This document shows, one piece after another, positions 1 through 31,605 of a stretch of 64,000 nucleotides of DNA. Every line of letters starts with the position of its first letter. The stretch's first letter is position 1. A program made the position numbers and the translations under genes. Under the pieces are notes generated by a model. It was not told the origin of the DNA and did not search any database. It worked only from the letters and a program-made list of their open reading frames with translations. The DNA comes from an uncultured archaeon (GTDB lineage: Archaea > Thermoplasmatota > Penumbrarchaeia > JASLWR01), in assembly GCA_964342815.1 (NCBI GenBank), contig CAYFHS010000002.1:184790-248789 (forward strand), written 5' to 3'.

Positions 1-1391
1 GCATTGGGTGCGCTCTCCCTCAGTGCATTTCGTATGTCTCCGGGGGACGTGTCCCCGTTTGCTTCTCTCAGTATGGCTGCCACTCCCGCAACGTGGGGAC
101 ATGACATTGAGGTGCCCTGTGCACCAATGTAGTTCGTGGGATCGACTACGCCGTTTGTCCATCCGGATCCTCCCATGCTCGTTCCCGATGCCCTTGCCGC
201 TTTTATGTACTCACCGGGGGCCAGCACATCGGGTTTCATGGCCCCGGTTGAAATTCCAGGTCCCCTGGATGAGAACGATGAAAGCTGACCATAGTCGTTA
301 CTGGATCCCACCGTGACCACATGGGGAGCGTTCCCGGGTGAACCGATGCGCAGCCCCTCCTCCCCATCGTTCCCGGCTGCTGCACATACAACAATACCAT
401 ATCCCACGGCATCGTTACAGGCACTGTTCATTGAATCACTGTGGACAGGGCTCCCCTGCTGGTTCACCGTCCCTATGGAAAGTGACATAACATGAACATT
501 GTATGTATTGCGATTTGACACGACCCAGTTAACAGCTTCCACCACATAGCCATATGTGGAGGCACCCAATACCCTGGCGATCAACAGATCCGCATTGTAT
601 GCCACGCCTCTGTATCTACCGCCCGATGCCCCGCCGGCAGGAGGATTTCCCGCTGCAATGGATGCGCAGTGAGTACCGTGTCCGTCATCATCATAGGGAC
701 TCCGAACTTGAGGGGGCCAGCTGGTATAATCCTTGAAAGCCAGTATTTTTCCTCCCTGAAAAGCCTCATGGTTGCCATCGATACCAGTATCCAGCACTGC
801 AATCGTGGTTCCTTGGCCTGAAAAACCTGCAGAATACACGTCGGACATGCTAATGGCGTTGCCGGAACTGTCCAAAAGAGTTCTAAGTCTTGGTATTGCA
901 CAGATCTCTGCCACATCCGGAATCGTGGCCACATCGTTCAGAATTCCAACCGGCAGCCTGACGTGTATTTGGTCAATATATTCCGACACCTGCATTATCT
1001 CTGCGCCGGTTTGTTGGAGCGATGAAATGTCGAAGAGAGAATCATCGGTGGAAAGAAGAACCATGCATTCAACGAGGTCTCCCGGCGCTTGATCTCTGAC
1101 CTCTTCCTCGAGAATATCCTCTATGCGGTTGCGATCTACGTCACCGGGGTTGAAACCGCCGTTCTTGTATTCGTTAACATGACCCTTTACAGTATAACCA
1201 AAAAGTTCTTGATGTGCCTGCGTATTTTCATCGAGTGGGGCGGACAAAAGGGAGTTGTAGGGAGATAGAACCGTTCCGCTTTGATCCGTGTAACTAATCT
1301 TAAAAGTACCCGGTTCGGAAATTGCAATCCCCATGAGGGGCATTGCCGACAATAGGACAATAATAAAAATTGTGAAAGTATGAACCGACAT
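1..1391 (-). CDS. Secreted subtilisin-like serine protease (peptidase S8), 3' end truncated by the window edge; absent from the ORF track
   Basis: Hand translation of the minus strand from ATG at 1391 (alternative TTG at 1403 after GGTGG) is open to base 1. It gives a signal peptide (MSVHTFTIFIIVLLSAMPLMGIA), a propeptide, and the S8 motifs AVLDTGID, DDDGHGTHCASIAAG, AAGNDG and GTSMSCPHVAGVAA. Confidence 0.93.
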   Translation of the reverse strand, partial: MSVHTFTIFIIVLLSAMPLMGIAISEPGTFKISYTDQSGTVLSPYNSLLSAPLDENTQAHQELFGYTVKGHVNEYKNGGFNPGDVDRNRIEDILEEEVRDQAPGDLVECMVLLSTDDSLFDISSLQQTGAEIMQVSEYIDQIHVRLPVGILNDVATIPDVAEICAIPRLRTLLDSSGNAISMSDVYSAGFSGQGTTIAVLDTGIDGNHEAFQGGKILAFKDYTSWPPQVRSPYDDDGHGTHCASIAAGNPPAGGASGGRYRGVAYNADLLIARVLGASTYGYVVEAVNWVVSNRNTYNVHVMSLSIGTVNQQGSPVHSDSMNSACNDAVGYGIVVCAAAGNDGEEGLRIGSPGNAPHVVTVGSSNDYGQLSSFSSRGPGISTGAMKPDVLAPGEYIKAARASGTSMGGSGWTNGVVDPTNYIGAQGTSMSCPHVAGVAAILREANGDTSPGDIRNALRESAPN

Positions 1392-1469
1392 TTTATTCGA
1401 CAAATAATCGCCACCTAAGCTACTGAAACATAACCGTGATGCTTTATTTGATTGAAAAACCTTTCTAAA

Positions 1470-2507
1470 TTATATCTTACCACTATTTCTCAGACTAACG
1501 TCCCCCGAACTTACCATGATGGTTTTTCCTTCCCCCACCTCGAGGATCAGACGCCCGTGGTCATCAATACCTCGGGATATTCCCCTCGTCTGCTGCCTTG
1601 GCCCGCTTACGGAAACCTCCTTTCCGGAAAGAAAATCTCTAAGCCGGATCCGTGCGACGATATTCTGGAACCCATCCTGGAAAAAGGTCTGGTAAGCCGT
1701 TTCCAGGGCTTCCAACAGCCCTGTAAAGATATCGATGCGTGAGAACTTTTTCCCCGCAAGCATCTTCAATGAAGCCGCTGCCGCAAGTCCTTTACCGAAA
1801 AAATGATCCTTTTCGATGTTAACGTTGATCCCTATACCGACTATAACCCAGTTCACCCTGTCCATATCGCCATCCATCCAGGTCAGTATCCCGCATATTT
1901 TTTTGTCATTCATCATTATATCGTTGGGCCATTTTATCAATGCAGGGATGCCGGAGATATTTTCAAGATAGCTGGCAATGGCTTCTCCCATGACCAAGGT
2001 AATCCTGCTTACTGCCTGAGTTGCTATATCCGGGCGCAGGAAAAGGGACATGTATATTCCCCCAACTGGCGATTCCCAGATACGCTGCAGTCGGCCCTTA
2101 CCCTGATTCTGTATCTCCGCCAGAACAACGCTTCCCGTTTCCAGCTCTGAAGCCATGGTTTTTGCCATGACATTGGTGGAAGCAGCCTCCGTGTAATAAT
2201 GATAATCCCTTCCAAAATGATCAGTTCTTAATTTATTTTCTATCAGCGGCGGCAGTAACAGGTCCGGTGTTCCGGTCAGACGGTGGCCCCTGGAGGGAAC
2301 CGAGATTATCTGAAAACCCATATCTCTGAGAACTCGAACCGACTTTCCCACGGCAGCCCTCGACAGGCCCAATCGGGCACCTATCATTTGACCTGAAACG
2401 AAGGATTTGGAATTATCATTATCCAGAAGCTCTCGCAGAACGTCCATGGTTGTACCGGTCACGGCACCGGTAGTCGCACTCTTATCATCCTTCATTCTGC
2501 AAAACAC
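1470..2507 (-). CDS. birA: Bifunctional biotin--[acetyl-CoA-carboxylase] ligase / repressor (BirA, with N-terminal wHTH)
   Basis: N-terminal FVSGQMIGARLGLSRAAVGK HTH; QNQGKGRLQRIWESP, IKWPNDI and KKICGIL ligase motifs; C-terminal SH3-like GIDDHGRL. The true start may be one of the downstream Met codons (MDVLRELL). Confidence 0.95.
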   Translation of the reverse strand: MFCRMKDDKSATTGAVTGTTMDVLRELLDNDNSKSFVSGQMIGARLGLSRAAVGKSVRVLRDMGFQIISVPSRGHRLTGTPDLLLPPLIENKLRTDHFGRDYHYYTEAASTNVMAKTMASELETGSVVLAEIQNQGKGRLQRIWESPVGGIYMSLFLRPDIATQAVSRITLVMGEAIASYLENISGIPALIKWPNDIMMNDKKICGILTWMDGDMDRVNWVIVGIGINVNIEKDHFFGKGLAAAASLKMLAGKKFSRIDIFTGLLEALETAYQTFFQDGFQNIVARIRLRDFLSGKEVSVSGPRQQTRGISRGIDDHGRLILEVGEGKTIMVSSGDVSLRNSGKI

Positions 2508-2570
2508 CTTCCGGATCTATGAGACGAAACCGCGAATGAGAAAACAATTATGCTCCACTACATGAGTAAT

Positions 2571-3338
2571 TCATTCGTCGATCCATTTCGGCGGTCTTTT
2601 TTCTAGAAATGCTTCCAGACCTTCGTTTGCGTCCTTTGTGATCATTAGTTCCTTTAGATAGATATCCTCGATCTTTTTCATAGCCGCATGGTAATTGTTC
2701 ATTGTTCCTTCCAAGAATGCCTTCTTCGTCAATCTGAGCACAACCGCACTGTTACAGGCCAGTTTTCCCGTGATGAACCTTTCAGCATCTTCCTCGAAGG
2801 TATCGAATGAGAATATATGATTTACCAGACCCAGCTCACGGGCCTCATCCGCTTTTATGATCTCTCCCGTCAGAAGCAGCTCCAGCGCCTTCTTATGGTG
2901 CATGAGTTTCGGAAATACCGCGGCGGCCACCGGCGGAAAGACACCTACCTTTATCTCCGGCTGCCCGAACTTTGCCCTGTCCGAGGCAAGAACCAGATCG
3001 CAGAACGCAGCCACCTCGCATCCGCCCCCAAGGGCAGCGCCTTTGACCAACGCCACTATAGGTGCGTCTATGTTGTTCATATTGTGAAAAATATCGTGAA
3101 AGACTTGGATCATCTCTTCAGCTTTGCCTCCCATATGATCGGATACGTCCACACCTGCCGAGAATGCCTTTCCCCTGGCATCCAGCACCAGTATCTTGAG
3201 CTTCCGCCCCTGGAAAGACTTCAACGCGTCGTTTATCTCCTGCATCATTTCGATGTTCAAAATATTTACGGGAGGCCTGTTGAAGGTGATCCTCCCTACA
3301 AGGTCATGCTCATCCACTATGATAGTTTTGTATTCCAT
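2571..3338 (-). CDS. dch: Crotonase-family hydratase, most like cyclohexa-1,5-diene-1-carbonyl-CoA hydratase (Dch/BamR)
   Basis: NRPPVNIL, FSAGVDVSDH, ALGGGCE and FGQPEIKVGVFPPVAA motifs; directly downstream of had and opposite oah. Confidence 0.85.
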   Translation of the reverse strand: MEYKTIIVDEHDLVGRITFNRPPVNILNIEMMQEINDALKSFQGRKLKILVLDARGKAFSAGVDVSDHMGGKAEEMIQVFHDIFHNMNNIDAPIVALVKGAALGGGCEVAAFCDLVLASDRAKFGQPEIKVGVFPPVAAAVFPKLMHHKKALELLLTGEIIKADEARELGLVNHIFSFDTFEEDAERFITGKLACNSAVVLRLTKKAFLEGTMNNYHAAMKKIEDIYLKELMITKDANEGLEAFLEKRPPKWIDE

Positions 3339-3457
3339 TTTATCTTGCTCCTTTCAAGACCCGGATATCTCTTGATAACCACCATTGGATTAAGTCAAAT
3401 CGTTCCTGCCATAGTTCTTTTTTCAGGTATCCCATGGTAGCTTTGGGATAAGGGAAT

Positions 3458-4585
3458 TCATGCGAAATCGGGTGTCAAAACGATTCTTCTCACCAGTTTT
3501 CCGGATTTCGCGTCCTCGAAAGCTTCCTTTATGCCGCTCATAGGTCTTGTCTCAACGAATGGTTTGATCTTTATGGTTCCGTCCAATACCCATTTCAATA
3601 CGTTATCGTAGTATTTCGGGAGACATCCCCAGGTACCGATGATATCAGCATCGAAAGCCATCAAGCGCGATATGCTGTACTGATTCTTCTGCATGCCGAA
3701 TCCTACCACGATTAATTTTCCGATGAAAGACAGCAATGCCAGCGCCATTTCCTGTCCTGCTTTGGTCCCCGTAACCTCGAATATCTTCCATCCATAGCTG
3801 GATGGCAGACCGTTCTGCTTGCAGATTCCTTTGAATTCGTTCTTCACGGCAAAGGCGTCCTTGTCGATGGAGTTGATTACGAAATCCGCCCCGTAATTCA
3901 GGGCGCGTTCGAGCTTTTCCCTGCTGATGTCGATCCCGATGACGGAATTAGCTCCAAATGCCTTGGCCATCTGCGTGACATAAACCCCCACACCCCCTCC
4001 CGTCCCGATTACAATCACGTTGTCTCCAATCCCGAGATCCCCCCTTACGCACGCCTGATAAGGCGTGGTGACCGCATCGGCTATGACTGCCAGTTCCTCT
4101 AGATCAAAACCATCTCGTCCCTCCACGAAACAGAGGTCCTTCACAGGTACCGGAATGTGGCTGGAGTATCCTCCGTAAATCCCAATGCTGTTCCCCGGCA
4201 TTTTCTGGCCAAGGCACCGGTTACCCCTGCCTGCTTCGCATATGGGGCAGTCGTTACACGGCAAAACCGCGGGAATTATTACCTCCCTTCCGATGAATCT
4301 TCCCTCTCCTGCAACGATAACGCCCGATATCTCATGTCCAAGTGTCAAGGGTGGGCCGGTTATCGTGGGGACGCCGTGATAGTAATAGCCCAGGTCGGTG
4401 TGGCAAACACCGCATCCTGCTACTTTCACGAGAACTTCGCCTTCTGATAATTCTGGTACCTGGATCTCCGTGAGCTCGATCAGTCCCTCCGTAATCTTTC
4501 CTGTTTCTCTATCTTTTTTCCAGGGTCGGACCATCTGCCATGTCTTTATCATTTCGGGTAGATCCATCTTTTCCTCTCCTGTCAT
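3458..4585 (-). CDS. had: 6-hydroxycyclohex-1-ene-1-carbonyl-CoA dehydrogenase (Had/BamQ, Zn-dependent MDR family)
   Basis: GCGVCHTDLGYYYHGVPT, LGHEISG, structural Zn motif CNDCPICEAGRGNRC, ADAVTTPYQA, and the Had-typical C-terminus SRLMAFDADIIGTWGCLPKYY. Confidence 0.9.
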   Translation of the reverse strand: MTGEEKMDLPEMIKTWQMVRPWKKDRETGKITEGLIELTEIQVPELSEGEVLVKVAGCGVCHTDLGYYYHGVPTITGPPLTLGHEISGVIVAGEGRFIGREVIIPAVLPCNDCPICEAGRGNRCLGQKMPGNSIGIYGGYSSHIPVPVKDLCFVEGRDGFDLEELAVIADAVTTPYQACVRGDLGIGDNVIVIGTGGGVGVYVTQMAKAFGANSVIGIDISREKLERALNYGADFVINSIDKDAFAVKNEFKGICKQNGLPSSYGWKIFEVTGTKAGQEMALALLSFIGKLIVVGFGMQKNQYSISRLMAFDADIIGTWGCLPKYYDNVLKWVLDGTIKIKPFVETRPMSGIKEAFEDAKSGKLVRRIVLTPDFA

Positions 4586-4620
4586 TCCGAATCCATACCA
4601 CTGTGGTTGTGCGAATCGTG

Positions 4621-4667
4621 CAAGTGCATGATTATATCGATATTTAATATTATTGTAACAAGTGCAT
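4621..4667. promoter_or_regulatory. Divergent had/oah promoter region with a 9-bp direct repeat and a 10-bp palindrome (candidate operator)
   Basis: CAAGTGCAT at 4621-4629 and 4659-4667 flanks an AT-rich TATA-like tract that contains the palindrome ATATCGATAT (4634-4643). Confidence 0.4.
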
Positions 4668-4792
4668 TCACGGCATTGGAGGGACCCATATCAATACCAC
4701 GAAAAGTATCATATATTATTAATCCGATAAGGTCGAATCCAACGGATCGAGGCGTCATAATCAATCAAACAATCAGATAATGGAGGGAAAAA

Positions 4793-5935
4793 ATGACATT
4801 AAATTGGTTACCGAGAGAAGATGAGATAAAGAATCATGAGTTGTTCAAGGGAGACGAATATTTCGGAACGGAAGCTCCCTGTACGATGTATGAAAAGAAA
4901 CCTGTACTGGATCCGAAGGGAAATGAAGTGGAAGGACTTTATTCCGCATGGATAACGCTGAATAATCCCCGTCAGTACAATTCGTATACCACCGAGATGG
5001 TGAAGGGAGTTATCGCAGGATTCCACAACGCATCGGTGGACCGGACCGTGGTAGCCGTGGTCTTCACCGGCGCAGGCGACAGGGCGTTCTGTACAGGTGG
5101 CAACACCAAGGAATATGCTGAATACTATTCCAAGCGCTGCAACGAGTACGGGGAGTACATGGAACTGTTCAACCACATGGTGGATGCCATACTCTTCTGT
5201 AAAAAACCGGTTATATGCAGGGTGAACGGTATGAGGATCGCGGGAGGTCAGGAGATTGGTATGGCCGCAGACCTTGCAGTCAGTTCCGATCTTGCGATCT
5301 TCGGGCAGGCCGGACCCAAGCACGGCAGCGCCCCTGACGGGGGCTCCAGCGATTTCCTGCCCTGGTATCTGGGGATCGAGGACGCAATGTGGAACTGCAT
5401 AAGCTGCGAGATGTGGTCCTCTTACAAGATGAAGAGACTCGGTTTCATATCAAAGGCGGTCCCGGTGATCAAGGAAGGGGACAAGTGGATCAGGAATCCC
5501 CAGGTGATCACAGATAAATATGTGGATGACGGCGAGATAGTATACGGCGAGTTCAAGACCGGAGACGAGTTCAAGGAAGCGAGAAAATACGTTTGGAACG
5601 CCAAGACCGACTTCGAGCTTCTGGACAAGGCGGTTAACGATATCATCTGGCGGTTCACGAACCTGTTCCCCGGCTGTCTCATCAAGACCATCGACAGCAT
5701 TAGAGCCAAGAAAAAGTTCTTCTGGGATTACTCCAAGAACTACAACAGGCACTGGCTGGCGGCGAATATGGCCGGAGAGGCATTCCTTGGATTCCATGCC
5801 TTCAACACGAAGAAGATCACAGGCAAGGACACCATCGATTTCATCAAATACCGCCAGCTGATAGCTGAGGGAGCATACCAGGACGACGACTTGTTCGAGG
5901 CCGTTCTGGGAAAGCCGCTGCCGAAAGATGAATAA
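4793..5935 (+). CDS. oah: 6-oxocyclohex-1-ene-1-carbonyl-CoA hydrolase (Oah/BamA, ring-opening)
   Basis: WITLNNPRQYNSYTTEMVKGVI, AFCTGGNTKEYAEYY, GMRIAGGQEIGMAADL, GPKHGSAPDGGSSDF and WLAANMAGEAFLGF are Oah-family motifs; length ~380 aa fits. Confidence 0.95.
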   Translation: MTLNWLPREDEIKNHELFKGDEYFGTEAPCTMYEKKPVLDPKGNEVEGLYSAWITLNNPRQYNSYTTEMVKGVIAGFHNASVDRTVVAVVFTGAGDRAFCTGGNTKEYAEYYSKRCNEYGEYMELFNHMVDAILFCKKPVICRVNGMRIAGGQEIGMAADLAVSSDLAIFGQAGPKHGSAPDGGSSDFLPWYLGIEDAMWNCISCEMWSSYKMKRLGFISKAVPVIKEGDKWIRNPQVITDKYVDDGEIVYGEFKTGDEFKEARKYVWNAKTDFELLDKAVNDIIWRFTNLFPGCLIKTIDSIRAKKKFFWDYSKNYNRHWLAANMAGEAFLGFHAFNTKKITGKDTIDFIKYRQLIAEGAYQDDDLFEAVLGKPLPKDE

Positions 5936-6017
5936 ACCGCTTTTTAATGTTTCGCGGGGATGCGTTCAAACACTCCCCGTTTATTCTATTATTAATGGTA
6001 CGAAGTCAGGGTACTAC

Positions 6018-6422
6018 ATGAAAACCTTCATCACACGAACCCGCGCAAGATACGCTGAGACCGATACCGCGGAGGTTTTGTACTACGGTAGCTATTTTTT
6101 ATACTTCGAGGTGGGTCGGATCGAGATGTTCCGCGAGCTGAATCTGCCTTACAGAAGGGACATTCCCATTGTGGATACTTACTGCAAGTATCTGAGACCG
6201 GGCTATTTCGACGACCTTCTTGAAATTCATACGAAATTCGACGATATCACGGAAAAGGGATTCAAGATAAGGTCCTTTGTTCATCGCGTAACAGATGACG
6301 GAACTCTAGAACAAATTGCAGAAGGGTACGTCACAATGGTATACGTTAACGAGGACCGGAAGGTGAGCCCGCTGCCGGATTATTTCGTGGAAGTTTTCGA
6401 GAAGATCGGGGCGGAGGAGTAG
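6018..6422 (+). CDS. Hotdog-fold acyl-CoA thioesterase (4-hydroxybenzoyl-CoA thioesterase / YbgC-like)
   Basis: RARYAETDTAEVLYYGSYFLYFEVGR motif. Start placed at ATG 6018 rather than the ORF-track start at 5928. Confidence 0.85.
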   Translation: MKTFITRTRARYAETDTAEVLYYGSYFLYFEVGRIEMFRELNLPYRRDIPIVDTYCKYLRPGYFDDLLEIHTKFDDITEKGFKIRSFVHRVTDDGTLEQIAEGYVTMVYVNEDRKVSPLPDYFVEVFEKIGAEE

Positions 6423-6446
6423 CGGTCGTTGACTATTTTGCCCAGA

Positions 6447-7025
6447 TTAGTTCTTTGGAGGAAAAAGAGCTTTTTTAATCCTGGCTTTGCCCTCCTCGTA
6501 ATGGAATCTCTTTTCGAATAACCAATCATTGTTTGTTTCAATTGAAATATTATCATATTGTTTCTTTTTTTCTAATATATAATTATTGATCTTTTCCAAT
6601 TCATCTTTTGACCCTAAATCAGCTACCGCAATGGTAATATCTTCATCGTTTGCCATAATTGTAAGAGTATAACTGGTCTGTGATGGTGAATTATACCCTC
6701 CACCTAAAATCTTCTTTACATAGGCAGCATGTGAGATTTCAGACCAAAGCGCATCGAACTTCTTTTTCTTTCCAATCCAATATTGAAATCGTATGTTATC
6801 TAACATTACCGTTTTTATCCTCCATGTAAAGGGTAGTAGAATTGCTCCCAGTATAAAAACAGCGGAACCTATCAATATCCACCACATTCGATAACCCAAC
6901 TTCCCTTCTATACCAACAAATAATGACATAAGTCCAAAAAGGCACAAAGAGGAAGCTCCAACTACATTTATCCATGGTCTTTTAGATATTATAAGAGGTT
7001 CCAATGTCATCTTGATTTCTCCCAA
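6447..7025 (-). CDS. Hypothetical membrane protein (2 TM + small beta domain, possibly bacterial PH-like)
   Basis: Two hydrophobic helices followed by a beta-rich segment with LWSEI; AT-rich codon usage. Confidence 0.6.
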   Translation of the reverse strand: MGEIKMTLEPLIISKRPWINVVGASSLCLFGLMSLFVGIEGKLGYRMWWILIGSAVFILGAILLPFTWRIKTVMLDNIRFQYWIGKKKKFDALWSEISHAAYVKKILGGGYNSPSQTSYTLTIMANDEDITIAVADLGSKDELEKINNYILEKKKQYDNISIETNNDWLFEKRFHYEEGKARIKKALFPPKN

Positions 7026-7173
7026 TCCCTTTTTGAATACCTTTCTATCAAATTCGGATTACATTCTTAAATAACTTTTAACATTTATTAAAATCTTCTG
7101 GTCCCGCTGTCAATCAATCTTCTTCATTATCACGGAAGGGTACGTCTCTATGAAATACTGGAATGGATTTTCA

Positions 7174-7189
7174 ATTGATATTTATCAAT
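7174..7189. promoter_or_regulatory. Palindrome ATTGATA-TT-TATCAAT in the island's intergenic gap
   Basis: 7+2+7 inverted repeat about 150 bp upstream of the 6447..7025 gene; the AT-rich context makes chance plausible. Confidence 0.3.
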
Positions 7190-7210
7190 CATAAAATGAA
7201 TTAAATCCAA

Positions 7211-7741
7211 TTATTTGGAGTCATAAAATTCCCTGATGAGAGAAAAATATTCCTTCCATTCTTTCGTATTTTCCGGATAAGTGGTCAATGCAGTTTCTAA
7301 CTTATTTTCCCAGGTATTTCTTCCCATCTCTTCTTTTAGAATATCACGGACTTCGTCAAAGCGCTTTGTATAAGGATCGTCATATGTAATCATGAATTTT
7401 TCATTCGAATCCGTTGATCGAAACAAGAATACAAGGCATCGACATTTTCGGTTCTTAATACCGCGGATAATGGAGAAACCGAGCACGCTCCTCTCGGATT
7501 GCCTGATCGAAATAATCTCATCAAACAGAATAGCGTGCCATTTTTCTCCCATAAGCATGGATGGTATCTGCCTCTGTACTACTGCTGTGTCGAAACGCTT
7601 TTCGTCATCCAAAACCGGGAATTTTATATTTTTTATTTTTACGCCCTTTGCGAATACGATAATATCGTCGTTTGAGCTGTGGGTTTTTAGGGGGTATACC
7701 TTGTCCCCGAAGAGTAACTTTTTATCGATCATCCGGCTCAT
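7211..7741 (-). CDS. Hypothetical protein (possible PH-like beta domain)
   Basis: Open 176-aa ORF overlapping the upstream stop (ATGA coupling) with a GGTGAGGGG RBS; ILFDEII motif. Confidence 0.6.
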   Translation of the reverse strand: MSRMIDKKLLFGDKVYPLKTHSSNDDIIVFAKGVKIKNIKFPVLDDEKRFDTAVVQRQIPSMLMGEKWHAILFDEIISIRQSERSVLGFSIIRGIKNRKCRCLVFLFRSTDSNEKFMITYDDPYTKRFDEVRDILKEEMGRNTWENKLETALTTYPENTKEWKEYFSLIREFYDSK

Positions 7742-8760
7742 CGCCCCTCACCTCTTTTTGACGATTTGATATGATTGCTCTTTTTCGGTCTGGCAATCAA
7801 CCTAAAGGAAAATAAAGGATGCCTCTTTTGAGATTGCCGCTCACTGAAACGCTCTCCGATAAGTTCGCCTCCTTTACCCCACGGCACAAGGTCACTTCCC
7901 CTGCTATACCCTCCCGCCCCGCCATAATACTTGTATCTCTCCCCCGGCTTGCACCACTCCCATACATTACCGAGCATGTCGTAAAGACCCCAAGGATTCG
8001 GAAGTAGGCTGCCAACTGGGAATACCATGCCCTTTTCATCCGGAAAGACGGTTTTACCCATTCCTAGAAATCCTTCCATCAGGATGAAGACATGCTGAAA
8101 TTTTTCATTGAGATAGGTTTTGGGATGCTTCCCCTGCTCATTGGCATATAATGCGAAATACCATTCCTCGAAGGTGGGCAGAGCGAATCTGAATTCAGCG
8201 TTCTTTTTATTCAAGGTATTTATGAATTCCTTGATCTCCTTCACCGACACGTGGGTGACGGGATATTCAGTCTTGACGGGGACATCGGGTCTTCGTTTCC
8301 GTCCCATCATCTTTTCCCATGGTTTGGTTTTAACCGCTTTGTACCACTGTCCCCTTGTTACTGGATATACACCCATATAATGATCCCTGAAAGGTAAATT
8401 TCTGAAAAGAATTCCGTTGATCTCGATCTGATCGAACCGGTCCGAATTTGTTTCTTTCCAGTCCTGAATTTTGCACATGACTTCATTCCTTTTTTTCCTT
8501 TTATGATCCCATTCCTTCATATCCTTGGCAGCTTTTCGCGCCATGAGAAGATACATTATTCCTCCAAGAATCGGGAGGAAGACATAAATGATAAAAAGAG
8601 AATTTGCATTCCTTTTTTCACCGCTGTATGAGTCCCGTGCGGAAAGCAGTATTTTCTTCTTTCGAGTGAACCTCCAGATGGCGAATATCATGATAATGTG
8701 GGTAGCCAGGACGCCTAATGTTATAATTTCTGCGATCATAGAATCCCTCCATCGAAGCAT
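7738..8760 (-). CDS. Membrane-anchored FGE-sulfatase / SUMF1 (C-type-lectin-fold) domain protein
   Basis: Two N-terminal TM helices; YPVTRGQW, YPVTHVS, FALPTFEEW, PNPWGLYDMLGNVWEWC and terminal FSFRL motifs. Confidence 0.85.
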   Translation of the reverse strand: MLRWRDSMIAEIITLGVLATHIIMIFAIWRFTRKKKILLSARDSYSGEKRNANSLFIIYVFLPILGGIMYLLMARKAAKDMKEWDHKRKKRNEVMCKIQDWKETNSDRFDQIEINGILFRNLPFRDHYMGVYPVTRGQWYKAVKTKPWEKMMGRKRRPDVPVKTEYPVTHVSVKEIKEFINTLNKKNAEFRFALPTFEEWYFALYANEQGKHPKTYLNEKFQHVFILMEGFLGMGKTVFPDEKGMVFPVGSLLPNPWGLYDMLGNVWEWCKPGERYKYYGGAGGYSRGSDLVPWGKGGELIGERFSERQSQKRHPLFSFRLIARPKKSNHIKSSKRGEGR

Positions 8761-8766
8761 TTTATA

Positions 8767-9714
8767 TCAATCATCGAACCTCTTCAGTATCTTCTTCTCA
8801 ATGTACCTATCAAAGCGCTTGCTCCTTACTATCCAGCCGGAGGTCCAAAATATTATGAGAATTACAGTTACTATCATGATTCCCACGAACCCCATAATCA
8901 AAGGGAGTGAAAGATTTAAAAAACTTGCTATAAATATGAAGACAGTCAAATAACATGCCATATAAAGTAATGAAGGAATCAATTGCACAATTGTAAATTC
9001 ATCAAAGAATACGATAAAATTGCAATCTTCACATTTAGCATTGAATCTCCCGTCTGCTCTAAGTTCCATAGTGCCCTGACAGACAGGGCATTTTTTCTCG
9101 CTCCAGCTCCGGAATGGATGTTTCTTTCCACTCCTCGTCTGATATTCTTTCTTCAATTTTTTCTCGATATCAACCAGTTTGAATATGCTTATATCCTCCT
9201 GGAAATCGACCTTCTTTGGATCAACGGATCGACGCAATATTCCAATGATTTTCCTTTTGTCGTCTTCTCGAAATCCGAAACCGATATCCACCATCCGATT
9301 GTTTCTATTGTAGATATGGATTCTTATTGAACCCTGTGTAGTGAATGTATAGATTGCTACTATTTCGTCGTAGGGGAAAACCTTCTTTCTGACAACTTTG
9401 AAAGCAATTTCCTTATTCAATATACTGACCTTTCGCTTTTTGAAGAATGCGATATACAAGATCGCACAAAGGGGCATGACAAAAGCTCCAAATATGCTAC
9501 TGTAAATCAATAAGGTAATCGTTGGTCCCTTTATAATGAGATAACCGAGTATCCAGAGAAAATAAGGGACAGGAAATAAAAGAGTAAGAAAAACAGCTCC
9601 CCCTCGCTCCATTGGTGGAAAGCGCCGAAATGAGCTATGGAAAGTATGTGTCATTATCGTAACCCAAACCGAGGATGGTTGACTTGGAATATAAATTTTA
9701 TTGAGCCGGTTCAA
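8767..9714 (-). CDS. Hypothetical multi-pass membrane protein with a beta domain and a Zn ribbon
   Basis: About 4 TM helices, an FPYDEI beta domain, and a CPVC...CEDC Zn ribbon; AT-rich. Confidence 0.6.
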   Translation of the reverse strand: MNRLNKIYIPSQPSSVWVTIMTHTFHSSFRRFPPMERGGAVFLTLLFPVPYFLWILGYLIIKGPTITLLIYSSIFGAFVMPLCAILYIAFFKKRKVSILNKEIAFKVVRKKVFPYDEIVAIYTFTTQGSIRIHIYNRNNRMVDIGFGFREDDKRKIIGILRRSVDPKKVDFQEDISIFKLVDIEKKLKKEYQTRSGKKHPFRSWSEKKCPVCQGTMELRADGRFNAKCEDCNFIVFFDEFTIVQLIPSLLYMACYLTVFIFIASFLNLSLPLIMGFVGIMIVTVILIIFWTSGWIVRSKRFDRYIEKKILKRFDD

Positions 9715-9908
9715 AATCGATAAAGGTTCCTAATTGAAAATTTTACAACGTTGATAGGTATAATTTTTTCATAAGACACGATAATCCAAACTAATAACAG
9801 TGTGGGAGAGTAAATATTTCGAGAAATCTTCCGATGTATCATAAGGTTTTGGCCGATTTCTTCCCGGAAGATAGTTTCATTTTTCAGCCAATTTATAGTC
9901 TCGTCCCC

Positions 9909-10265
9909 TCACCACACTTTCTTTTCCTCTATCAGCTCCACCTCGACCTCGGTACCAAAATTCTTTTTCAGGTCGTTCCGAAGTGCCTCGAAATCTTCCA
10001 TGCTGTCATATTCCACCACCAGATTTTTCTCATCGAGCACGTTCAACCTGCCATGTCTTTCCACCACCTCGATGACGTCCCTGGTCCTTACCGTGATCCA
10101 GCCTTTCATACGCCTCAGCAGTTCATCCCCTTTGAATGCTCTGGCGATGGTCAGGTCGATCCTGCGCTGCTTTGCATCCCAACCGATTATGGCAGGACGC
10201 ACTATCTTTGGCGTTACCGGATCGTGAACAACAGCACATCTGAACCATATCTTCGATCGTATCAT
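9909..10265 (-). CDS. Hypothetical protein (118 aa)
   Basis: Codon usage like the backbone genes, starts 68 bp after the upstream gene; no recognised motif. Confidence 0.65.
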   Translation of the reverse strand: MIRSKIWFRCAVVHDPVTPKIVRPAIIGWDAKQRRIDLTIARAFKGDELLRRMKGWITVRTRDVIEVVERHGRLNVLDEKNLVVEYDSMEDFEALRNDLKKNFGTEVEVELIEEKKVW

Positions 10266-10332
10266 AAGGTATCAGACCATATTGTTTTATACGGAAAAAA
10301 TTCTTGACCGGTATTGCCATTTGTTTCGATGT

Positions 10333-13300
10333 TCATACCGGTGGCGGAGGCGGCATGGCAGAGGTAGAGGTCGGAGTTGCGGGGGCGGGTTTTGGTGCAG
10401 CAGGAGGAGACTGTGCCGGAGGTGACTGTGCAGGAGGTACCGCCGTCCCGGGGGCCGCTCCTGGGATGGGTCTCGGAACGGATCCCGGGATAGGTCCCGG
10501 AACGGGTCCCGGTGCTTTTGGCTGATATTTGCCCTGCGGTGGTGCGGTGGGTGCCGGTTTGTAAAGCCTCTCGCCGGGTACGCTGGGTGTTGGAGTGGGT
10601 TTCTGGTACGGATGCGCGGACGGCACGCTGGTGGTCTGGATCTCGTATTTCCCGTCCACGAACTGGAAATCGATTATGTCCGCCTCATCATCCTTTCCAT
10701 TCTTCGAAGCTCCCTCTGTCTCGGTATGTCCCACCACCTGCTTCGTGTTCATGTCGATCACCACCGAGTACTGCGGTAATGCAAGCCGCTTCTTCTGCTC
10801 CGGCAGTTTCTTCGCAGAAGTTTGACCCGAAGGTAGCTGAGCAACATCCTTCTTCTTGAACAGCTCACTTGCGTCGGGCATGATCCTTTTGGCGACCACG
10901 CCTCCCTTCATCACCGGACTGTAGGTGATCTCGGCCATGTCTTTCCTCTCACTTTCCCTATCCAGCAGCTCCGGCGGTATCCTGTTCTTTATCCGTTTCA
11001 CTACCATAATGATGATAATCATCAGGATAATCAGTGCAACCAAGGCGATTGCGCCGTAGAAAATTAATGGTTCGTCCTCTATTAACTTCTCCAGTGAGGA
11101 ACGTTCATCGATCATTTCTTTATCCACCACTTTGATGGAAAGCGCCTGCTCGGTCTCGGAAAAGAATGTCGGTATCTTCGAGGTGCACACGGCCCTGATA
11201 ATGTGTTCTCCCGATATGGAGGAACCCGCCGGAACGAATATTTCCAGGGGAAGTATGACCTCATTCTCCGGGAGCATTCTGAAGGAACCGATTAACGGGG
11301 ATACGTATTCAAGAAGTTCATCATCCGCTATGATATTGATGGTGACATTATCCTCGATGGTTCCTCGGTTGATGATACGCAGGTTGAATGTGTACACCGT
11401 TCCCTTCTCCACGGTTATGTTCGCAATCTGCGCGTCGAAAGATATCTCCGTAATATACACGATGATCTCCAGCGTCTGATAGGCTACCGGTGAAAAGCTC
11501 TCACCGTCGAAGGCCTTGATCTGAATATAGTAAATTAAATTCGGTGCCAGCTCTTTACTAAACTGAAATCTCGTATGGTTCTGTACCGGGTACCAGGATA
11601 CGATCTCGCCGTGACCCTTGGACAAACCTATCTGGATGAAATACACTATCATATCATCCCTGCCCTCGGGGTCCGTTGCAGGGTCCCAATGAATGGTGGG
11701 CGTCAAATTAGTGGTCATACTGGGTAATATGTTTGTCACCTGGGACGGCGGCATGTTGCCCTTTTCTGTTATTTCCAGAACCGCTTCGAAAACTATGGAA
11801 AATAATTCACCATCGAAGGCCTTGATCTGGACGTAATATTTACCAATGACAAGTTCTTCCTTTGGTCGGTAGCTGTTCACCGCGATCCCATCCACCCATG
11901 GCAGTACGTCACCCGCCCCGCTTCTGCTTCCGATCTGTATCGAATATGTTATGTTGTCGTTGTTGATGTCGTAGGCCCCGACCCAGCTAATGTTCGTGGT
12001 CGTCTCCCATGTCTTGGTGGGGTACATTTCCGTGGGTGGTGACGGTGGTGCGTTGGCATCTCCTATTATATGAAGAAGTTCCTGTTGTATGTATGAGAAG
12101 GAATACCCGTCAGAAACACGGACCTGCACGTAATAGGTACCGAGGGGCAGCTCATTCTGGATCTGATACTGCGAGGATGGCCCAACATCGACCCATGGTA
12201 GTATGTCATCGCTGTATGGATAGCTTCCGATCTGGAGGTAGTTGCCAATTACCGAATCGCCATCCCCGTCCACCGCTCCGGACCAGCTTATCAACGGCAG
12301 CGTTTCCATGGTAAAGTCCGGAAGGATCGTATTTGGTGGTGATGGTGGAAGGTTTGCAAGCACGAAGATATCTAAGGTCTGAACCAAGGGCGTGGAGTTA
12401 TCCAATCCGTCCGTGGCCAAAACCTCGACGAAATAAGTATCGTACGGCAGTGGTGTTTCTACCTGATAGAAAGGATTTTTTCCTATCCATTGCCGCCGTA
12501 CCACATCCCCACTTCCCTCCACGGTCCCGATCATTATATAGTATTCCAGATCATAGCTTTCTGTTATAGTATCGGTGGCACCATACCAGTGTATAAAGGG
12601 GGCAGTTTCCCGTGTCTCGTCCGGCAGCAGGGTGTCCGGTGGAGACGGAGGTATGTTGAAGTACAGCTCGAACAGCTCCGAGTTTTCCGAGAAGGGCACA
12701 GATGACGCTGCCCCGAACTTATCATCTATCTTTACTTCGACGTCATAGGTTCCTGTCTCGAAGCTGCTATTCACTCCAAAGGTAATATTTGTTAGGTATT
12801 CGTTGTTATCCAGCAGTGATGAAGTGATCTTGGCCAACTCCTTGACACCAGATGAAAATACCAGGAATGTTTCATCCGAGGGGTTCCTTATGGACAGTTC
12901 GTAGGTGAATGAACTCAAGGTGTGAAGGTCCGGATCGCTGAACCTTACCGATAAGGTCATTTCCGGCTCATTATAGGTGTTCAGGCGAGTGGGTGAAATG
13001 CTCACTTCGAGTATCTGTGGGTCTATGTTGAAAAAGGTTGAAAAAACCTCGGGATTATCAGCGTAATCGGAAACGAATATTGGCTCAGCTCCGTCGTGGA
13101 TGGTTATCCTGACGTCGAATTCGTCATCCGGCAAGGAGTTAAATTCGTCATACCTGTACGATACCATGAAAGAATTGTTTGTAAGATTGATGATCTGGAA
13201 AGCGGATCTACTGGCAGCCGGGTAAATAGTCCGAAGGGTGCCGTTGGAGCTTCTCAAACTTATGTTGACATCCACGTTCCTGAGTTCGTAATCGCCGGAA

Positions 13301-14826
13301 ATATTTTCCATAACGGTGTAATTGATGAAGACAGGTTTTTCCAGATGGCGGTTGCAGCGTTCCGGTTCAACGGAAACACCGACGATCTCGGCCCTGTACA
13401 GCTCGAATGCATCGAGCCGGTCCTCGAAGCTCGAGCTGTTTTGACCACCCAGCCCGTCGTTCACCTCGATCAAAAGATCGTAAAAGGACGGAGGATAAGC
13501 ATCATCTGGCTTCCATATATACTGGAAATCGTATGAATGATTCGTTTTTTTGTTTATTGATAATCCCGGTTCGCCGTTTTCCGCATTGGTCGCCAGATCA
13601 TAGACTATATTGTTCTCATCTCTTATGCGGATGCTGAGATTGAAATCGGAATCGCTCTGAACGTCCAGGTCCTGGAATGTACCTGAGAAAGTTATGGTTG
13701 ATCCTCCGAGTTTGTTAAGCCGCAATTTGTTGTTCTTCATGCTGTTCACATTTATTCCGGGGTAATGGTTGCGCAGCTCAACTGCATTCTCAAGTGATTG
13801 ATATCCAGTCCCTCCCGGCAGCCCGTCCGGATCGAATAATAAAATTTTTAGATCCACGAAACCGAATCCGTAGACCCGTCCGGGATCAAAAAACAGTGTT
13901 GCGTTATAAAAACCGGCGAGAATGCGCTCCATTGAGAACTTGGTATTCTTGATTGAAATGTTGTCTACGTATCTTAACAGCGATGCGTTATCGCTTAACC
14001 GCACGTCAACTGTCATTGTGAAATTGTCCACACTGTGATCATCGGGATCGCTCACAGACAGGTTTATGGCTGCCGTGTCATCCGAAAGAGGATAGATTAT
14101 GGGGTTGCTCACGTTTACGCTGTCTTTAATGTAACGGGGCCGGAAATTCGCCTTTACAGTAATATTATCGATTATTATCATATCCCCGTGGGGATTGTCA
14201 CGACCTCCCGAGCTCCAGTAAAAATACCCGCGAAATTGTATTCGGAGGTTGCTGATCTTTGGGAACGCCGAGAGATCGTAGGAGGCATGTATGAAATCGT
14301 TGGGGCCAGTGGATGAATCGCCATTATCCAGGGTCTGTGGTGTTTTCCACATGGGGTTGGTATAACCGTTATTAGTGATCCCATCCGCGTCTATATCGAT
14401 ATACAAATGTTCATAGTTCTCTATATCTTCGTAAGCGTAATAGAAATCAAGCACGACGTCCTCGGTATTAGTTAGATCCAGGGTCGTGACTATCACTGCC
14501 GTATCGTAGTTGTTACCCCCATCTCCCCTCATGAAAACGCTGTGGCCGTCATACGCAAAAGTGTTGCCGTCGAAATTCGTACGGACCTCAAGCAATCCCC
14601 TGTTCCTCCAGGGGGTGAAAGCGCCCCATCCGTTCTCGAAATCTTCGAAAAAAATGATTTTTTCGGCACCTCGGGTAGCGCTTGATGGATTATCGGCAGG
14701 GTTAAGCTGAGGATTGGTACGTGTTTCCGTACTCATATTATTGGAAAATAGGTGCAGCGACGAACTTATCAATGCCACTGTTATCATGCAAATGATCATC
14801 TTATTCTTGCTAATCATAAAGCTCAC
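10333..14826 (-). CDS. Large cell-surface glycoprotein: signal peptide, lectin/Ig-like domains, 4 FN3-like repeats, C-terminal TM helix and Pro-rich cytoplasmic tail
   Basis: N-terminal hydrophobic segment; four PPS(P/Q)xx..P..T....P.I.W..A.D repeats; many N-x-S/T sequons; TM LIFYGAIALVALIILMIIIIMVV; tail ending MPPPPPV. Confidence 0.8.
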   Translation of the reverse strand: MSFMISKNKMIICMITVALISSSLHLFSNNMSTETRTNPQLNPADNPSSATRGAEKIIFFEDFENGWGAFTPWRNRGLLEVRTNFDGNTFAYDGHSVFMRGDGGNNYDTAVIVTTLDLTNTEDVVLDFYYAYEDIENYEHLYIDIDADGITNNGYTNPMWKTPQTLDNGDSSTGPNDFIHASYDLSAFPKISNLRIQFRGYFYWSSGGRDNPHGDMIIIDNITVKANFRPRYIKDSVNVSNPIIYPLSDDTAAINLSVSDPDDHSVDNFTMTVDVRLSDNASLLRYVDNISIKNTKFSMERILAGFYNATLFFDPGRVYGFGFVDLKILLFDPDGLPGGTGYQSLENAVELRNHYPGINVNSMKNNKLRLNKLGGSTITFSGTFQDLDVQSDSDFNLSIRIRDENNIVYDLATNAENGEPGLSINKKTNHSYDFQYIWKPDDAYPPSFYDLLIEVNDGLGGQNSSSFEDRLDAFELYRAEIVGVSVEPERCNRHLEKPVFINYTVMENISGDYELRNVDVNISLRSSNGTLRTIYPAASRSAFQIINLTNNSFMVSYRYDEFNSLPDDEFDVRITIHDGAEPIFVSDYADNPEVFSTFFNIDPQILEVSISPTRLNTYNEPEMTLSVRFSDPDLHTLSSFTYELSIRNPSDETFLVFSSGVKELAKITSSLLDNNEYLTNITFGVNSSFETGTYDVEVKIDDKFGAASSVPFSENSELFELYFNIPPSPPDTLLPDETRETAPFIHWYGATDTITESYDLEYYIMIGTVEGSGDVVRRQWIGKNPFYQVETPLPYDTYFVEVLATDGLDNSTPLVQTLDIFVLANLPPSPPNTILPDFTMETLPLISWSGAVDGDGDSVIGNYLQIGSYPYSDDILPWVDVGPSSQYQIQNELPLGTYYVQVRVSDGYSFSYIQQELLHIIGDANAPPSPPTEMYPTKTWETTTNISWVGAYDINNDNITYSIQIGSRSGAGDVLPWVDGIAVNSYRPKEELVIGKYYVQIKAFDGELFSIVFEAVLEITEKGNMPPSQVTNILPSMTTNLTPTIHWDPATDPEGRDDMIVYFIQIGLSKGHGEIVSWYPVQNHTRFQFSKELAPNLIYYIQIKAFDGESFSPVAYQTLEIIVYITEISFDAQIANITVEKGTVYTFNLRIINRGTIEDNVTINIIADDELLEYVSPLIGSFRMLPENEVILPLEIFVPAGSSISGEHIIRAVCTSKIPTFFSETEQALSIKVVDKEMIDERSSLEKLIEDEPLIFYGAIALVALIILMIIIIMVVKRIKNRIPPELLDRESERKDMAEITYSPVMKGGVVAKRIMPDASELFKKKDVAQLPSGQTSAKKLPEQKKRLALPQYSVVIDMNTKQVVGHTETEGASKNGKDDEADIIDFQFVDGKYEIQTTSVPSAHPYQKPTPTPSVPGERLYKPAPTAPPQGKYQPKAPGPVPGPIPGSVPRPIPGAAPGTAVPPAQSPPAQSPPAAPKPAPATPTSTSAMPPPPPV

Positions 14827-16375: not shown

Positions 16376-18934
16376 TCACTCCAGCAATCCCTTTTTCCTT
16401 TCGACATAATTATATATTTTCAACCAGGCCACCATTGCATGCTGGTTATAGTCTATTCTGATTTCGTGGTCCGCAACGCCACCGGGCACGCCTCCGAAAC
16501 ATCTTCTTGGTGACGGAAGAAATTGAGAATCCGATTCGTTGAGCGCGAGCATCACCAGGAAGTCCGATGCCAGTATAATCCTTGTCTTGTAGAACTCCTT
16601 ATCACCGGACAGATTATACCTCTCCATCATCCAGTAAAAGTCCATTGGTCCCTCTATCTTCGACGCCGTGTTCGCCCTGGGATAGTAGTCAGGTTCGCCG
16701 TCAGGGTCATTTTGATATCTGAGGTAGCGATCGTAATAGAAACCTCCCACATATTCCGGTATCTCGAAACCCTCAGGATACTGGTCCTGACCGTAGAGAA
16801 CGCTTTCCGCCATTGAGCGGGACATGTTCACATATCTAACGTCCGGTTCGAACTCATACATGATGAGCGCCGCGCCGGTGGCCCATGGACTGAACGGCGA
16901 GTAGTATGAGTTATCCCTCCCGTAATAATCATAATAATAGTCGAAGGCCAGCTTCCAGCAGTCCATGTATTTTTCCTCGCGTGTATGCTGGTAGAGGAAC
17001 GCCAGCGCCAGGAAAGCCTCTCCAGGATAGTAATCCGTGTGTTTCCAGTAGTATTTGTCCCCTTCCTCCGGTATACTGCCGTCCACCTGATAGTAGTTGT
17101 TGAATTCCCCGGTGCCGTTGTCCTGTGAGAATATAAAAAAGTTCCCTAGAGCGTCCAGTGTGTCACCGTAGCGGTCATCGAGCACCTTCTCAAAGGTCAC
17201 GTAGCAGAGCACTGCCAGTGCCGCCCCTCCCAATTTCGAATCACCCTCGTCAACGATGTGGGCCGTATTCTGGTCAATGTACTCGACGTGTTTTCCCACG
17301 TATTCCATGGCAAGTTCCCCGGCGTCGAGAAATATCTTCTCGGGGTAGTTGCGGTAAAGAAGAAGGACCGAGTAGGTGGTTCCCATCTGGCGGAGCATGT
17401 TATCGCTTGACGAATAGGAAAGCTGCCTTGGATCGTACTGGTAATTAAAACTTCCGTCGGGCCGCTGGCCGTTCACCAGATAAAGTCCTGCCGCCACCGA
17501 AGCCTCGAGATAGGGTGAGTCCCGGGGTTCTTTCATATCCTCCATTGCGAACCATTTCCTGCCGTGCACGCGCTCTTCACCCTTTATCTCAGTAAGCAGA
17601 TCTTCTTTTAGTACGACATAGTCGTGCATCTTTATCCAGGCTACAATGGCATGCTGATTGTAATCGATTCTCACGTCACTGTCGCTCACACCGCCCGGGA
17701 CGCCTCCATAAGCTTTTTTTGGGTCCGAAAGCGATGCAGCATCCGACGCGTTATACTGTAGAGTCGCAAGGAATTCAGACGCCAGCACCATTCTTTCACG
17801 GTAGAATTTTTTATTACCCGACAGATCATACCTCTCCATCATCCAGTAAAAATCCATGGGCCCCTCTATCTTCGACGCCGTGTTCGCCCTGGGATAGTAG
17901 TCAGCTTCGCCGTCGGGGTCATTTTGATATCTAATGTAGCGATCGTAATAGAAACCTCTCACGTATTCCGGTATCTCGAAATCCTCCGGATACTGGTCCT
18001 GCCCGTACAGCACCCGATCCGCCATTGAGCGGGACATTTCGACGTATCTCTCATCCTGCTGAAACTCATACATTATCAGTGCAGCGCCGGTGGCCCAGGG
18101 GCTGAATGGAGAATAATACGAGTTCTTCCCACCGTAGTAGTCGTAATAATATTCGAATGCCAGGTCCCAGCAGTCCTTGTATTTTTCCTCCCGTGTGTGC
18201 TGATACAGGAACGCCAGGGCCAGGAAAGCCTCTCCGGGGTAGTAATCCGTATGTTTCCAGTAGTATTTTTCCCCCTCTGCCGGTATCTTCCCGTCCACTT
18301 GATAGTAGTTATTGAACTCCCCGGTGGCATTGTTCTGAGAGAATATTATGAAATTTCCCAGGGCGTCCAAGGTATCTCTATAACGCGTACCGGCAACCTT
18401 TTCGAAGGTCACGTAGCAGAGCACTGCCAGTGCCGCCCCTCCCAGTTTCGAGGTACCGCCGCTGACGATATGGGCCGTTTCCGGGTCGATATACTCCACG
18501 TACCGCTCAACGTATTCCATGGCAAGCTGGCCTGTCTCAAGAAAGATTGGCTCCGGATAGTGTTTGTAGATCAAAAGAACGGAATAGGTTGTGCCCAGCT
18601 GCCGAAGCATGTTGTCGTCTGTGGAATAACTGTCACCTTTGGGATCGTAATTGTAGTTGAAGCTTCCGTCCGAGCGCTGGCAGTTCACAAGGTACAGCCC
18701 GCCCATCACTGCGGATTCGAGGTAGGATGATTCGATTTCCAAATTCATGTCGTCCAGTGTGAACCAGTCCCTTCCCGGCACACGATCCAGTGCTTCTTCG
18801 TAAAAGTAAAGATAGACTGCGAGACCCGATAACACAAGAAGAGCCGTCACGCAGAATGCAAGTATGATCTTGTGGACGCGGAGGCTCTCGTTCAAGGCTG
18901 TCACATCCTGTGTTATTGATTCATTTAATCCCAC
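16376..18934 (-). CDS. Membrane-anchored protein with two tandem ~404-aa helical (alpha/alpha-toroid-like) domains
   Basis: N-terminal TM; two highly similar halves with a 1212-bp period, each with LVNxQRxDGSFNY, DNMLRQxGTTYS, SKLGGAALA, DYYPGEAFLALA and RIDYNQHA. Confidence 0.75.
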   Translation of the reverse strand: MGLNESITQDVTALNESLRVHKIILAFCVTALLVLSGLAVYLYFYEEALDRVPGRDWFTLDDMNLEIESSYLESAVMGGLYLVNCQRSDGSFNYNYDPKGDSYSTDDNMLRQLGTTYSVLLIYKHYPEPIFLETGQLAMEYVERYVEYIDPETAHIVSGGTSKLGGAALAVLCYVTFEKVAGTRYRDTLDALGNFIIFSQNNATGEFNNYYQVDGKIPAEGEKYYWKHTDYYPGEAFLALAFLYQHTREEKYKDCWDLAFEYYYDYYGGKNSYYSPFSPWATGAALIMYEFQQDERYVEMSRSMADRVLYGQDQYPEDFEIPEYVRGFYYDRYIRYQNDPDGEADYYPRANTASKIEGPMDFYWMMERYDLSGNKKFYRERMVLASEFLATLQYNASDAASLSDPKKAYGGVPGGVSDSDVRIDYNQHAIVAWIKMHDYVVLKEDLLTEIKGEERVHGRKWFAMEDMKEPRDSPYLEASVAAGLYLVNGQRPDGSFNYQYDPRQLSYSSSDNMLRQMGTTYSVLLLYRNYPEKIFLDAGELAMEYVGKHVEYIDQNTAHIVDEGDSKLGGAALAVLCYVTFEKVLDDRYGDTLDALGNFFIFSQDNGTGEFNNYYQVDGSIPEEGDKYYWKHTDYYPGEAFLALAFLYQHTREEKYMDCWKLAFDYYYDYYGRDNSYYSPFSPWATGAALIMYEFEPDVRYVNMSRSMAESVLYGQDQYPEGFEIPEYVGGFYYDRYLRYQNDPDGEPDYYPRANTASKIEGPMDFYWMMERYNLSGDKEFYKTRIILASDFLVMLALNESDSQFLPSPRRCFGGVPGGVADHEIRIDYNQHAMVAWLKIYNYVERKKGLLE

Positions 18935-31414: not shown

Positions 31415-31605
31415 CTGAAATACACCCTTTATACGTGATTTTAGCAGCAAACGGAGGATAATGAAGACGGTATATATATTTTTGGTGCAAATGTGGTGAC
31501 GACTTTAAATTATCTCATTGGCCGATTGTACGATAAAAACGTTTAAATAAAGCCAGTAGTTATTCTTTTGCCCCGATTTAGTTATTATGTTGGAATAGTG
31601 AGACC

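Follow-up and report, generated by a model that had tools for sequence, protein, structure and literature searches.

To our knowledge, Ferroglobus placidus is the sole cultured archaeal case of anaerobic aromatic ring cleavage, and its benzoate pathway, like that of the host considered here, combines a class I reductase with bacterial-type downstream enzymes. For uncultured archaea the pathway has been read from metagenome-assembled genomes (MAGs): Dong et al. (2019) described class I bcr genes together with oah, dch and had in MAGs of Thermoplasmata and Bathyarchaeota and inferred a 'Bcr-Dch-Had-Oah pathway' (PMC6472368); evidence from genomes and transcriptomes for a reductive benzoyl-coenzyme A (CoA) reductase (BCR) route in Thermoprofundales is credited to Liu et al. 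(2020, Environ Microbiol 22:329) as cited in PMC10581246; and a passage in PMC9239135 reports bcrABCD in 'Ca. Yaplasmales'. A Thermoplasmatota MAG that dominated a benzene culture is without these genes (PMC10570749). As a genomic prediction for this same archaeal group, ring-opening capacity has stood since 2019 and is not new. The published MAGs are like ours in phylum, habitat type, class I reductase and possession of the three downstream genes, and rely on automatic annotation, and the main text consulted does not separate out a Dch subclade below the equivalog cut-off, a different dehydrogenase in the Had position of most Thermoplasmatota or a thioesterase added in the present lineage. 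Here we analyse a locus of this kind at 2571-6422 of a 64,000-nucleotide stretch (the window) of contig CAYFHS010000002.1 from an uncultured marine archaeon of the Thermoplasmatota (GCA_964342815.1), which quite likely encodes the three steps that follow benzoyl-CoA dearomatisation.

The bacterial systems of Thauera aromatica, Azoarcus and Geobacter metallireducens (BamR-BamQ-BamA; PMC1924859) involve the same three reaction types and the same protein families, and the reductase of the present genome is of the bzd type of Azoarcus. Their genes are co-directional, whereas those of the window are divergent (dch-had facing away from oah) and unlinked to the reductase. Two Rhodocyclaceae proteins that score above the curated Dch cut-off serve below as Thauera-type proxies, being defined by hidden Markov model score and context and themselves uncharacterised; against Rhodocyclaceae proxies that score above cut-off, identity is ~52% for the window Oah and ~34% for the window Dch. 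The closest relatives outside the phylum are MAG operons of Desulfobacterales, Desulfatiglandales, Anaerolineales and Bathyarchaeia (loci L041-L116), with identities of 70-78% for Oah, 58-69% for Had and 47-55% for Dch; the bacterial operons usually run had-oah-dch on a single strand, in contrast to the divergent window.

Window proteins were identified from a listing of open reading frames (ORFs) and by profile searches with NCBIfam, using its equivalog cut-offs, and Pfam. An earlier interpretation made from the letters of the window (the sequence-only reading) had proposed three consecutive ring-opening enzymes plus a thioesterase, arranged as divergent had-dch and oah-thioesterase pairs, and the ORF listing bears out all four genes as well as the layout, with one outward-facing pair on each strand:

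2571-3338, minus strand: Dch-like crotonase, 255 amino acids (aa), with TIGR03189 as its top NCBIfam match
3458-4585, minus strand: Had, a 375-aa zinc-dependent medium-chain dehydrogenase/reductase (Zn-MDR), TIGR03201 above cut-off
4586-4792: divergent control region between had and oah, 207 bp, kept in genomes G077 and G170
4793-5935, plus strand: Oah, a 380-aa crotonase-superfamily protein, TIGR03200 above cut-off
6018-6422 (conserved core, 134 aa; maximal ORF 5928-6422), plus strand: hotdog (4HBT/YbgC-like) acyl-CoA thioesterase, Pfam 4HBT_2

This module is real, intact and resident in its genome. Had scores 464 bits on TIGR03201 (cut-off 338.65), and its ADH_N and ADH_zinc_N domains give it the Zn-MDR architecture; in trees it falls within the Had proteins of had-oah operons. 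Oah scores 566.5 bits on TIGR03200 (cut-off 464.45) in an alignment that spans the whole model (1-360 of 360), while the same model is above cut-off in none of 14 control genomes. The PDB holds no solved structure of Oah, nor of Dch, for comparison.

The sequence-only reading had placed the ring reductase outside the window, and it does lie elsewhere in this 4.35-Mb assembly (88.9% complete, 3.2% contaminated), as a bzd cluster on contig C31. A class I, bzd-type reductase was sought with TIGR03190, TIGR03191 and TIGR03192, by gene adjacency and by the presence of another activase-type subunit along with a ferredoxin, and all of these were found. From this set, BzdN reaches 467.6 bits (cut-off 453.8), BzdO 543.4 bits (cut-off 448.6) and BzdQ 425.6 bits (cut-off 380.2), and they are accompanied, in the Azoarcus order, by a BzdP-like activase-type subunit (CoA_E_activ, 203 bits). 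Next in the cluster come a 96-aa 2x[4Fe-4S] ferredoxin (Fer4) and an 853-aa NuoG/GltD fusion that is BzdV-like. The genome also has a candidate for benzoate activation, an intact 516-aa protein of the benzoate-CoA ligase family on contig C33 (651 bits, cut-off 375), and a profile search bearing on a class II Bam reductase returned one AFOR-family gene in the genome.

Co-occurrence across the phylum points the same way. We counted genes in 401 sampled Thermoplasmatota genomes, which are mutually related, with the counts coming from about ten families and no formal statistic applied. Dch-like orthologues (54-86% identity) occur in 19 genomes, 16 of which also have BzdO; Oah is above cut-off in 15, with BzdO in 12 of them; and BzdO itself is above cut-off in 18. 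The set is carried by ~4% of the sampled genomes. The Thermoplasmatota order is dch-X facing away from oah, X being the position that Had occupies in the window. A compact example is a 12-kb island in genome G309 (L025:3834-16327, on its contig C3), in which a FadB-like gene, a Dch-like crotonase and a 390-aa dehydrogenase facing Oah are followed by a DUF35-size ORF, a thiolase, a short-chain dehydrogenase/reductase (SDR) and BzdNOPQ. In one relative the ring-opening set lies 3 kb from bzdNOPQ. In the present genome the orthologues of the island's SDR and thiolase (72-73% identity) lie 40 kb upstream on the window contig, and that of its FadB-like protein (64%) on contig C9. Because the island's orthologues are spread in this way, the pathway here is present yet scattered, and the island is the better archaeal template.

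With the bzd set, the ligase and the module together, genome content supports the earlier proposal that an uncultured archaeon would cleave aromatic rings anaerobically, and the module is very probably functional in benzoyl-CoA degradation. If substrates and direction of flux are those of the matching families, the Dch-like crotonase would hydrate cyclohexa-1,5-diene-1-carbonyl-CoA, the zinc-dependent Had would oxidise the resulting 6-hydroxy product, and Oah would combine water addition with hydrolytic ring opening to give 3-hydroxypimelyl-CoA. This product could then pass to the scattered beta-oxidation enzymes just described, the SDR and thiolase 40 kb upstream and the FadB-like protein on C9. 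Both gene pairs would be read outward from the single conserved 207-bp control region, and the hotdog thioesterase would most likely release CoA from a stalled or off-pathway thioester.

Several observations weigh against this assignment. The energetics are awkward, in that an ATP-consuming class I reductase suits a likely fermentative anaerobe poorly, a concern discussed in PMC6472368. A search of the 88.9%-complete genome for OAD_beta (PF03977), the beta subunit of Na+-pump decarboxylases, came back empty, so the lower pathway may be incomplete. The had/oah and bzd promoters are without a common operator, and the genes are dispersed. Finally, the crotonase scores 179.9 bits on the Dch model TIGR03189, short of the 292.5-bit cut-off; it is just 34-35% identical to the Thauera-type proxies; and no enzyme of its subclade was linked to a characterised protein in these searches.

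One way to accommodate some of these points is to suppose that the module serves mainly alicyclic or other ring acids, with cyclohexane-carboxylate or cyclohexene-carboxyl-CoA being converted to dienoyl-CoA and then taken through Dch, Had and Oah, or that it handles methyl- or hydroxy-benzoyl-CoA products. The cyclohexane-carboxylate route via dienoyl-CoA is known from Geobacter and Syntrophus, and such a use would suit a module that is unlinked to bzdNOPQ here and has its own control region without a bzd operator, as well as the three genomes (G094, G257 and G028) with Oah above cut-off and no BzdO match in the search. We nonetheless consider it unlikely as the main role, since this genome has BzdNOPQ and a benzoate-CoA ligase, relatives carry the unit beside bzdNOPQ, and most Oah genomes have BzdO as counted above. 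The alicyclic and benzoate uses are in any case compatible, the former extending the latter rather than replacing it.

Within the benzoyl-CoA reading, the crotonase, which the sequence-only reading called Dch, needs separate discussion. The alternative here is that this protein, and perhaps the thioesterase too, is an ordinary beta-oxidation enzyme that stands beside had and oah by chance, with the true hydratase elsewhere or missing. Its score on TIGR03189 only slightly exceeds that on generic enoyl-CoA hydratase models (166 bits), the G309 orthologue does better on generic models than on TIGR03189 (185 vs 166 bits), and the solved structures closest to it belong to generic enoyl-CoA hydratases. 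Phylogeny, however, separates it from such enzymes. In a maximum-likelihood tree of 66 sequences (LG+C20+F+G4), the window protein, 52 crotonases encoded at most 8 kb from an Oah gene and the two proxies part from 11 further crotonases of the same genomes with an ultrafast bootstrap (UFBoot) of 100 and an SH-aLRT (approximate likelihood-ratio) value of 98, and the Thermoplasmatota oah-adjacent crotonases form one subclade within the tree (85/93). In the alignment the catalytic glutamate pair is invariant (E108 in GGGCE and E128 in GQPE), and two indels are common to the window protein and the Thauera-type proxies and missing from generic crotonases. This genome holds only two other crotonase matches, both weaker. 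More than 10 Thermoplasmatota genomes have the Dch-like gene next to oah, and it keeps company with BzdO as noted above. Chance placement of an ordinary crotonase is very unlikely on these grounds. The proteins thus do not branch with generic crotonases and alcohol dehydrogenases, an outcome that the sequence-only reading had allowed for: Had and Oah are above their cut-offs and the crotonase lies in the 100/98 clade.

The failure to reach the Dch cut-off is shared by other carriers of Oah. In five further Oah-carrying genomes (a Rhodocyclaceae MAG, members of the Desulfobacterales, Desulfarculia and Desulfatiglandales, and a 5.2-Mb Thermoplasmata chromosome), no crotonase reaches it; the top match is the oah-adjacent gene in four of the five (151-182 bits), and in the Thermoplasmata chromosome the oah-adjacent crotonase, at 162 bits, comes behind a distant 169-bit paralogue. 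The oah-adjacent crotonases of the L041-L116 operons likewise reach only 151-182 bits. Among 41 Rhodocyclaceae genomes TIGR03189 is above cut-off in two (436 and 341 bits), the source of the proxies. From these profiles, TIGR03189 appears to cover just the Thauera/Geobacter-type Dch. Geobacter BamR shares 73% identity with Thauera Dch and so belongs to that other type (PMC1924859), and a label of 'BamR-like strict-anaerobe type' that we had considered for the present subclade was dropped for this reason. The name Dch is overstated in that the window protein falls outside the TIGR03189 equivalog; it shares a clade, the glutamate pair and the indels with above-cut-off Dch. We conclude that it is very probably the dienoyl-CoA hydratase of the pathway, from a sister subclade outside the curated equivalog, and that this subclade is probably isofunctional with Dch. 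A second Dch-like paralogue was seen in Thermoplasmata bin33 (L122, G405:C1:4907304-4908044), 60% identical to the window protein, away from oah and with a higher TIGR03189 score than the copy adjacent to oah.

Mis-binning or mis-joining of bacterial DNA into an archaeal assembly, as the 58-87% identity of Oah and Had to bacterial MAG copies and a polyphyletic Thermoplasmatota Oah interleaved with bacterial ones might suggest, is hardly credible in view of a 342-kb contig with archaeal hallmarks on both sides, a matching guanine-plus-cytosine (GC) content, recurrence of the block and its flanks in an independent assembly of the same genus, and the Thermoplasmatota-specific subclade of the Dch-like gene. 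The window spans 184.8-248.8 kb of this contig, and the archaeal core genes that the sequence-only reading saw around the module are real: FttA/aCPSF1 (28602-30524), a proteasome beta subunit (30779-31450) and a HerA-like ATPase lie in the window, and NreA, a FlaI-like ATPase and a CDC48/PAN-like ATPase lie upstream on the contig. GC content at 2-6 kb is 0.485-0.50, in line with the rest of the window. As for the phylum, genome G078, placed in the same phylum as the host, encodes a protein identical to one listed by NCBI under 'Thermoplasmatales archaeon SM1-50', which identifies the phylum as Thermoplasmatota. The same-genus genome G077 repeats the order subtilase-birA-dch-had facing away from oah-thioesterase-orf176, its proteins being 74-96% identical to those of the window, and the block recurs in part in G170 and G094. 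A chimeric bacterial join, which the sequence-only reading had named as a risk, is excluded for practical purposes.

The affinity with bacteria is nonetheless evident in the trees. The Had copies of this genome (G000), G077, G170 and G094 are nested among bacterial Had from Anaerolineales and Desulfobacterota (support 98). Oah shares 70-87% identity with its counterparts in MAGs assigned to Desulfobacterota, Acidobacteriota, Chloroflexota, Planctomycetota and Bathyarchaeia, and in the Oah tree the copies from Thermoplasmatota form at least four groups that alternate with bacterial ones. The window Oah belongs to one of these, clade A (support 99), with G077, G170, G094, G186, G003, G011 and one MAG labelled only 'bacterium', and this group is sister to one of Bathyarchaeia and Desulfobacterota. 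We attribute the likeness of Oah and Had to bacterial copies to old horizontal transfer and not to an artefact. The MAG labelled 'bacterium' (L037, JALGZP010000027.1, 'bacterium isolate M3-30_Bin_374') has an Oah 87% identical to that of the window and inside clade A, and may be an archaeon deposited under a bacterial label. In three other genomes (G010, G050 and G068) a Dch-like gene is present and Oah above cut-off is absent, and two of them (G010 and G050) have BzdO. Their best TIGR03200 matches score 145-155 bits over model positions 38-213 only, and comparable matches of 160-183 bits recur in families f26 and f27; these partial matches could represent another ring hydrolase or a MenB/BadI-like enzyme.

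Lineages of the phylum differ in the Had position. In G003, G011, G022, G078, G309, G324, G387 and three Thermoplasmata MAGs from NCBI it is occupied by another, unrelated Zn-MDR dehydrogenase, for example:

L025:6657-7829 (G309): 390-aa dehydrogenase, found also in L022, L023, L027, L028, L031, L046, L048 and L089

This protein shares only 25-29% identity with Had, and its TIGR03201 score is just 116 bits. It is present in exactly seven of the 401 genomes, from families f12, f19 and f21, and always lies between dch and oah; BzdO and the Dch-like gene accompany it in all seven. No copy was found in 77 bacterial and Bathyarchaeia Oah loci, nor in the present genome. G003 and G011 pair an Oah of the window clade (84-90% identical) with the 390-aa dehydrogenase, from which we infer that the dehydrogenases have been exchanged in the same position. 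We regard the 390-aa enzyme as a candidate for a non-orthologous Had; in most Thermoplasmatota the Had step seems to fall to a different dehydrogenase. This exchange with the bacterial-type Had is possibly a new point.

The thioesterase beside oah is specific to a smaller group. It is a member of the hotdog superfamily by its profile matches, with 41.8 bits on Pfam 4HBT_2 (cut-off 25.5), a further match to Pfam 4HBT and 50.2 bits, under the 68.7-bit cut-off, on TIGR00051 (YbgC/FadM); the solved structures that resemble it most are those of aq_1494, a 4-hydroxybenzoyl-CoA thioesterase and YbgC, and an alignment of four orthologues keeps the hotdog catalytic aspartate ('ETD'). The sequence-only reading was right that a thioesterase gene follows oah. 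Its maximal ORF starts at 5928, and conservation across the four orthologues begins at Met31 of that ORF, the ATG at 6018; the gene therefore probably has 134 codons, starting 82 bp past the oah stop without overlapping oah. Among Thermoplasmatota loci an oah-adjacent thioesterase was seen only in this genome, G077, G170 and G094, and among 80 related loci a match directly beside oah was found only in L063 (Anaerolineales, 31% identity), with a weaker one (26%) 6 kb from oah in L107. The oah-adjacent thioesterase of this lineage is possibly also new.

Taken together, a subclade of Dch particular to the phylum, an exchanged dehydrogenase in the Had position and an added thioesterase suggest a Thermoplasmatota benzoyl-CoA pathway with swappable, lineage-specific parts, a generalisation to which we would give an even chance.

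The control region between had and oah is conserved among this genome, G077 and G170, that is, across genus and family. It contains two direct repeats of CAAGTGC(A/T)T, ~37 bp apart, with an AT-rich, TATA-like core between them; a GGAGG precedes the oah ATG by 8 nt. The repeats may be an operator; no regulator gene adjoins the region. An operator common to this region and the bzd promoter was considered and rejected, with two shared 9-mers vs 1.9 expected and none of 10 or longer.

Beside dch lies birA:

1470-2507, minus strand: BirA biotin-protein ligase/repressor, TIGR00121, 194.7 bits

BirA is probably outside the module, because its adjacency to dch is held only within the genus. As a hint of a biotin-dependent, Na+-pumping glutaconyl-CoA decarboxylase it is unsupported, the adjacency being genus-only and no OAD_beta having turned up in the genome. 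On the other side, directly after the thioesterase, 6447-9714 has a low GC content (0.40 vs ~0.49) and contains three ORFs of 192, 176 and 315 aa that match no family, along with a 340-aa protein that has an FGE-sulfatase domain; in G077, too, a conserved counterpart of the 176-aa ORF adjoins the thioesterase. Further downstream are two giant minus-strand ORFs, at 10333-14826 and 18925-26913 (1497 and 2662 aa). An Rfam scan of window positions 1-12000 gave no matches.

Ring cleavage by sediment Thermoplasmatota is a repeated genomic prediction, to which this locus adds a well-supported case with reductase and ligase in the same 4.35-Mb genome. For surveys it brings two cautions that leave the known picture of the pathway unchanged: the curated Dch model fails to capture the type present in the tested Oah-carrying MAGs of Thermoplasmatota, Desulfobacterota and Rhodocyclaceae, and if the 390-aa enzyme is a true Had, KEGG and TIGRFAM surveys would call the pathway incomplete in most Thermoplasmatota that have it. 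The points of biochemical interest are the swapped dehydrogenase, the Dch subclade that stands apart and the thioesterase linked to oah.

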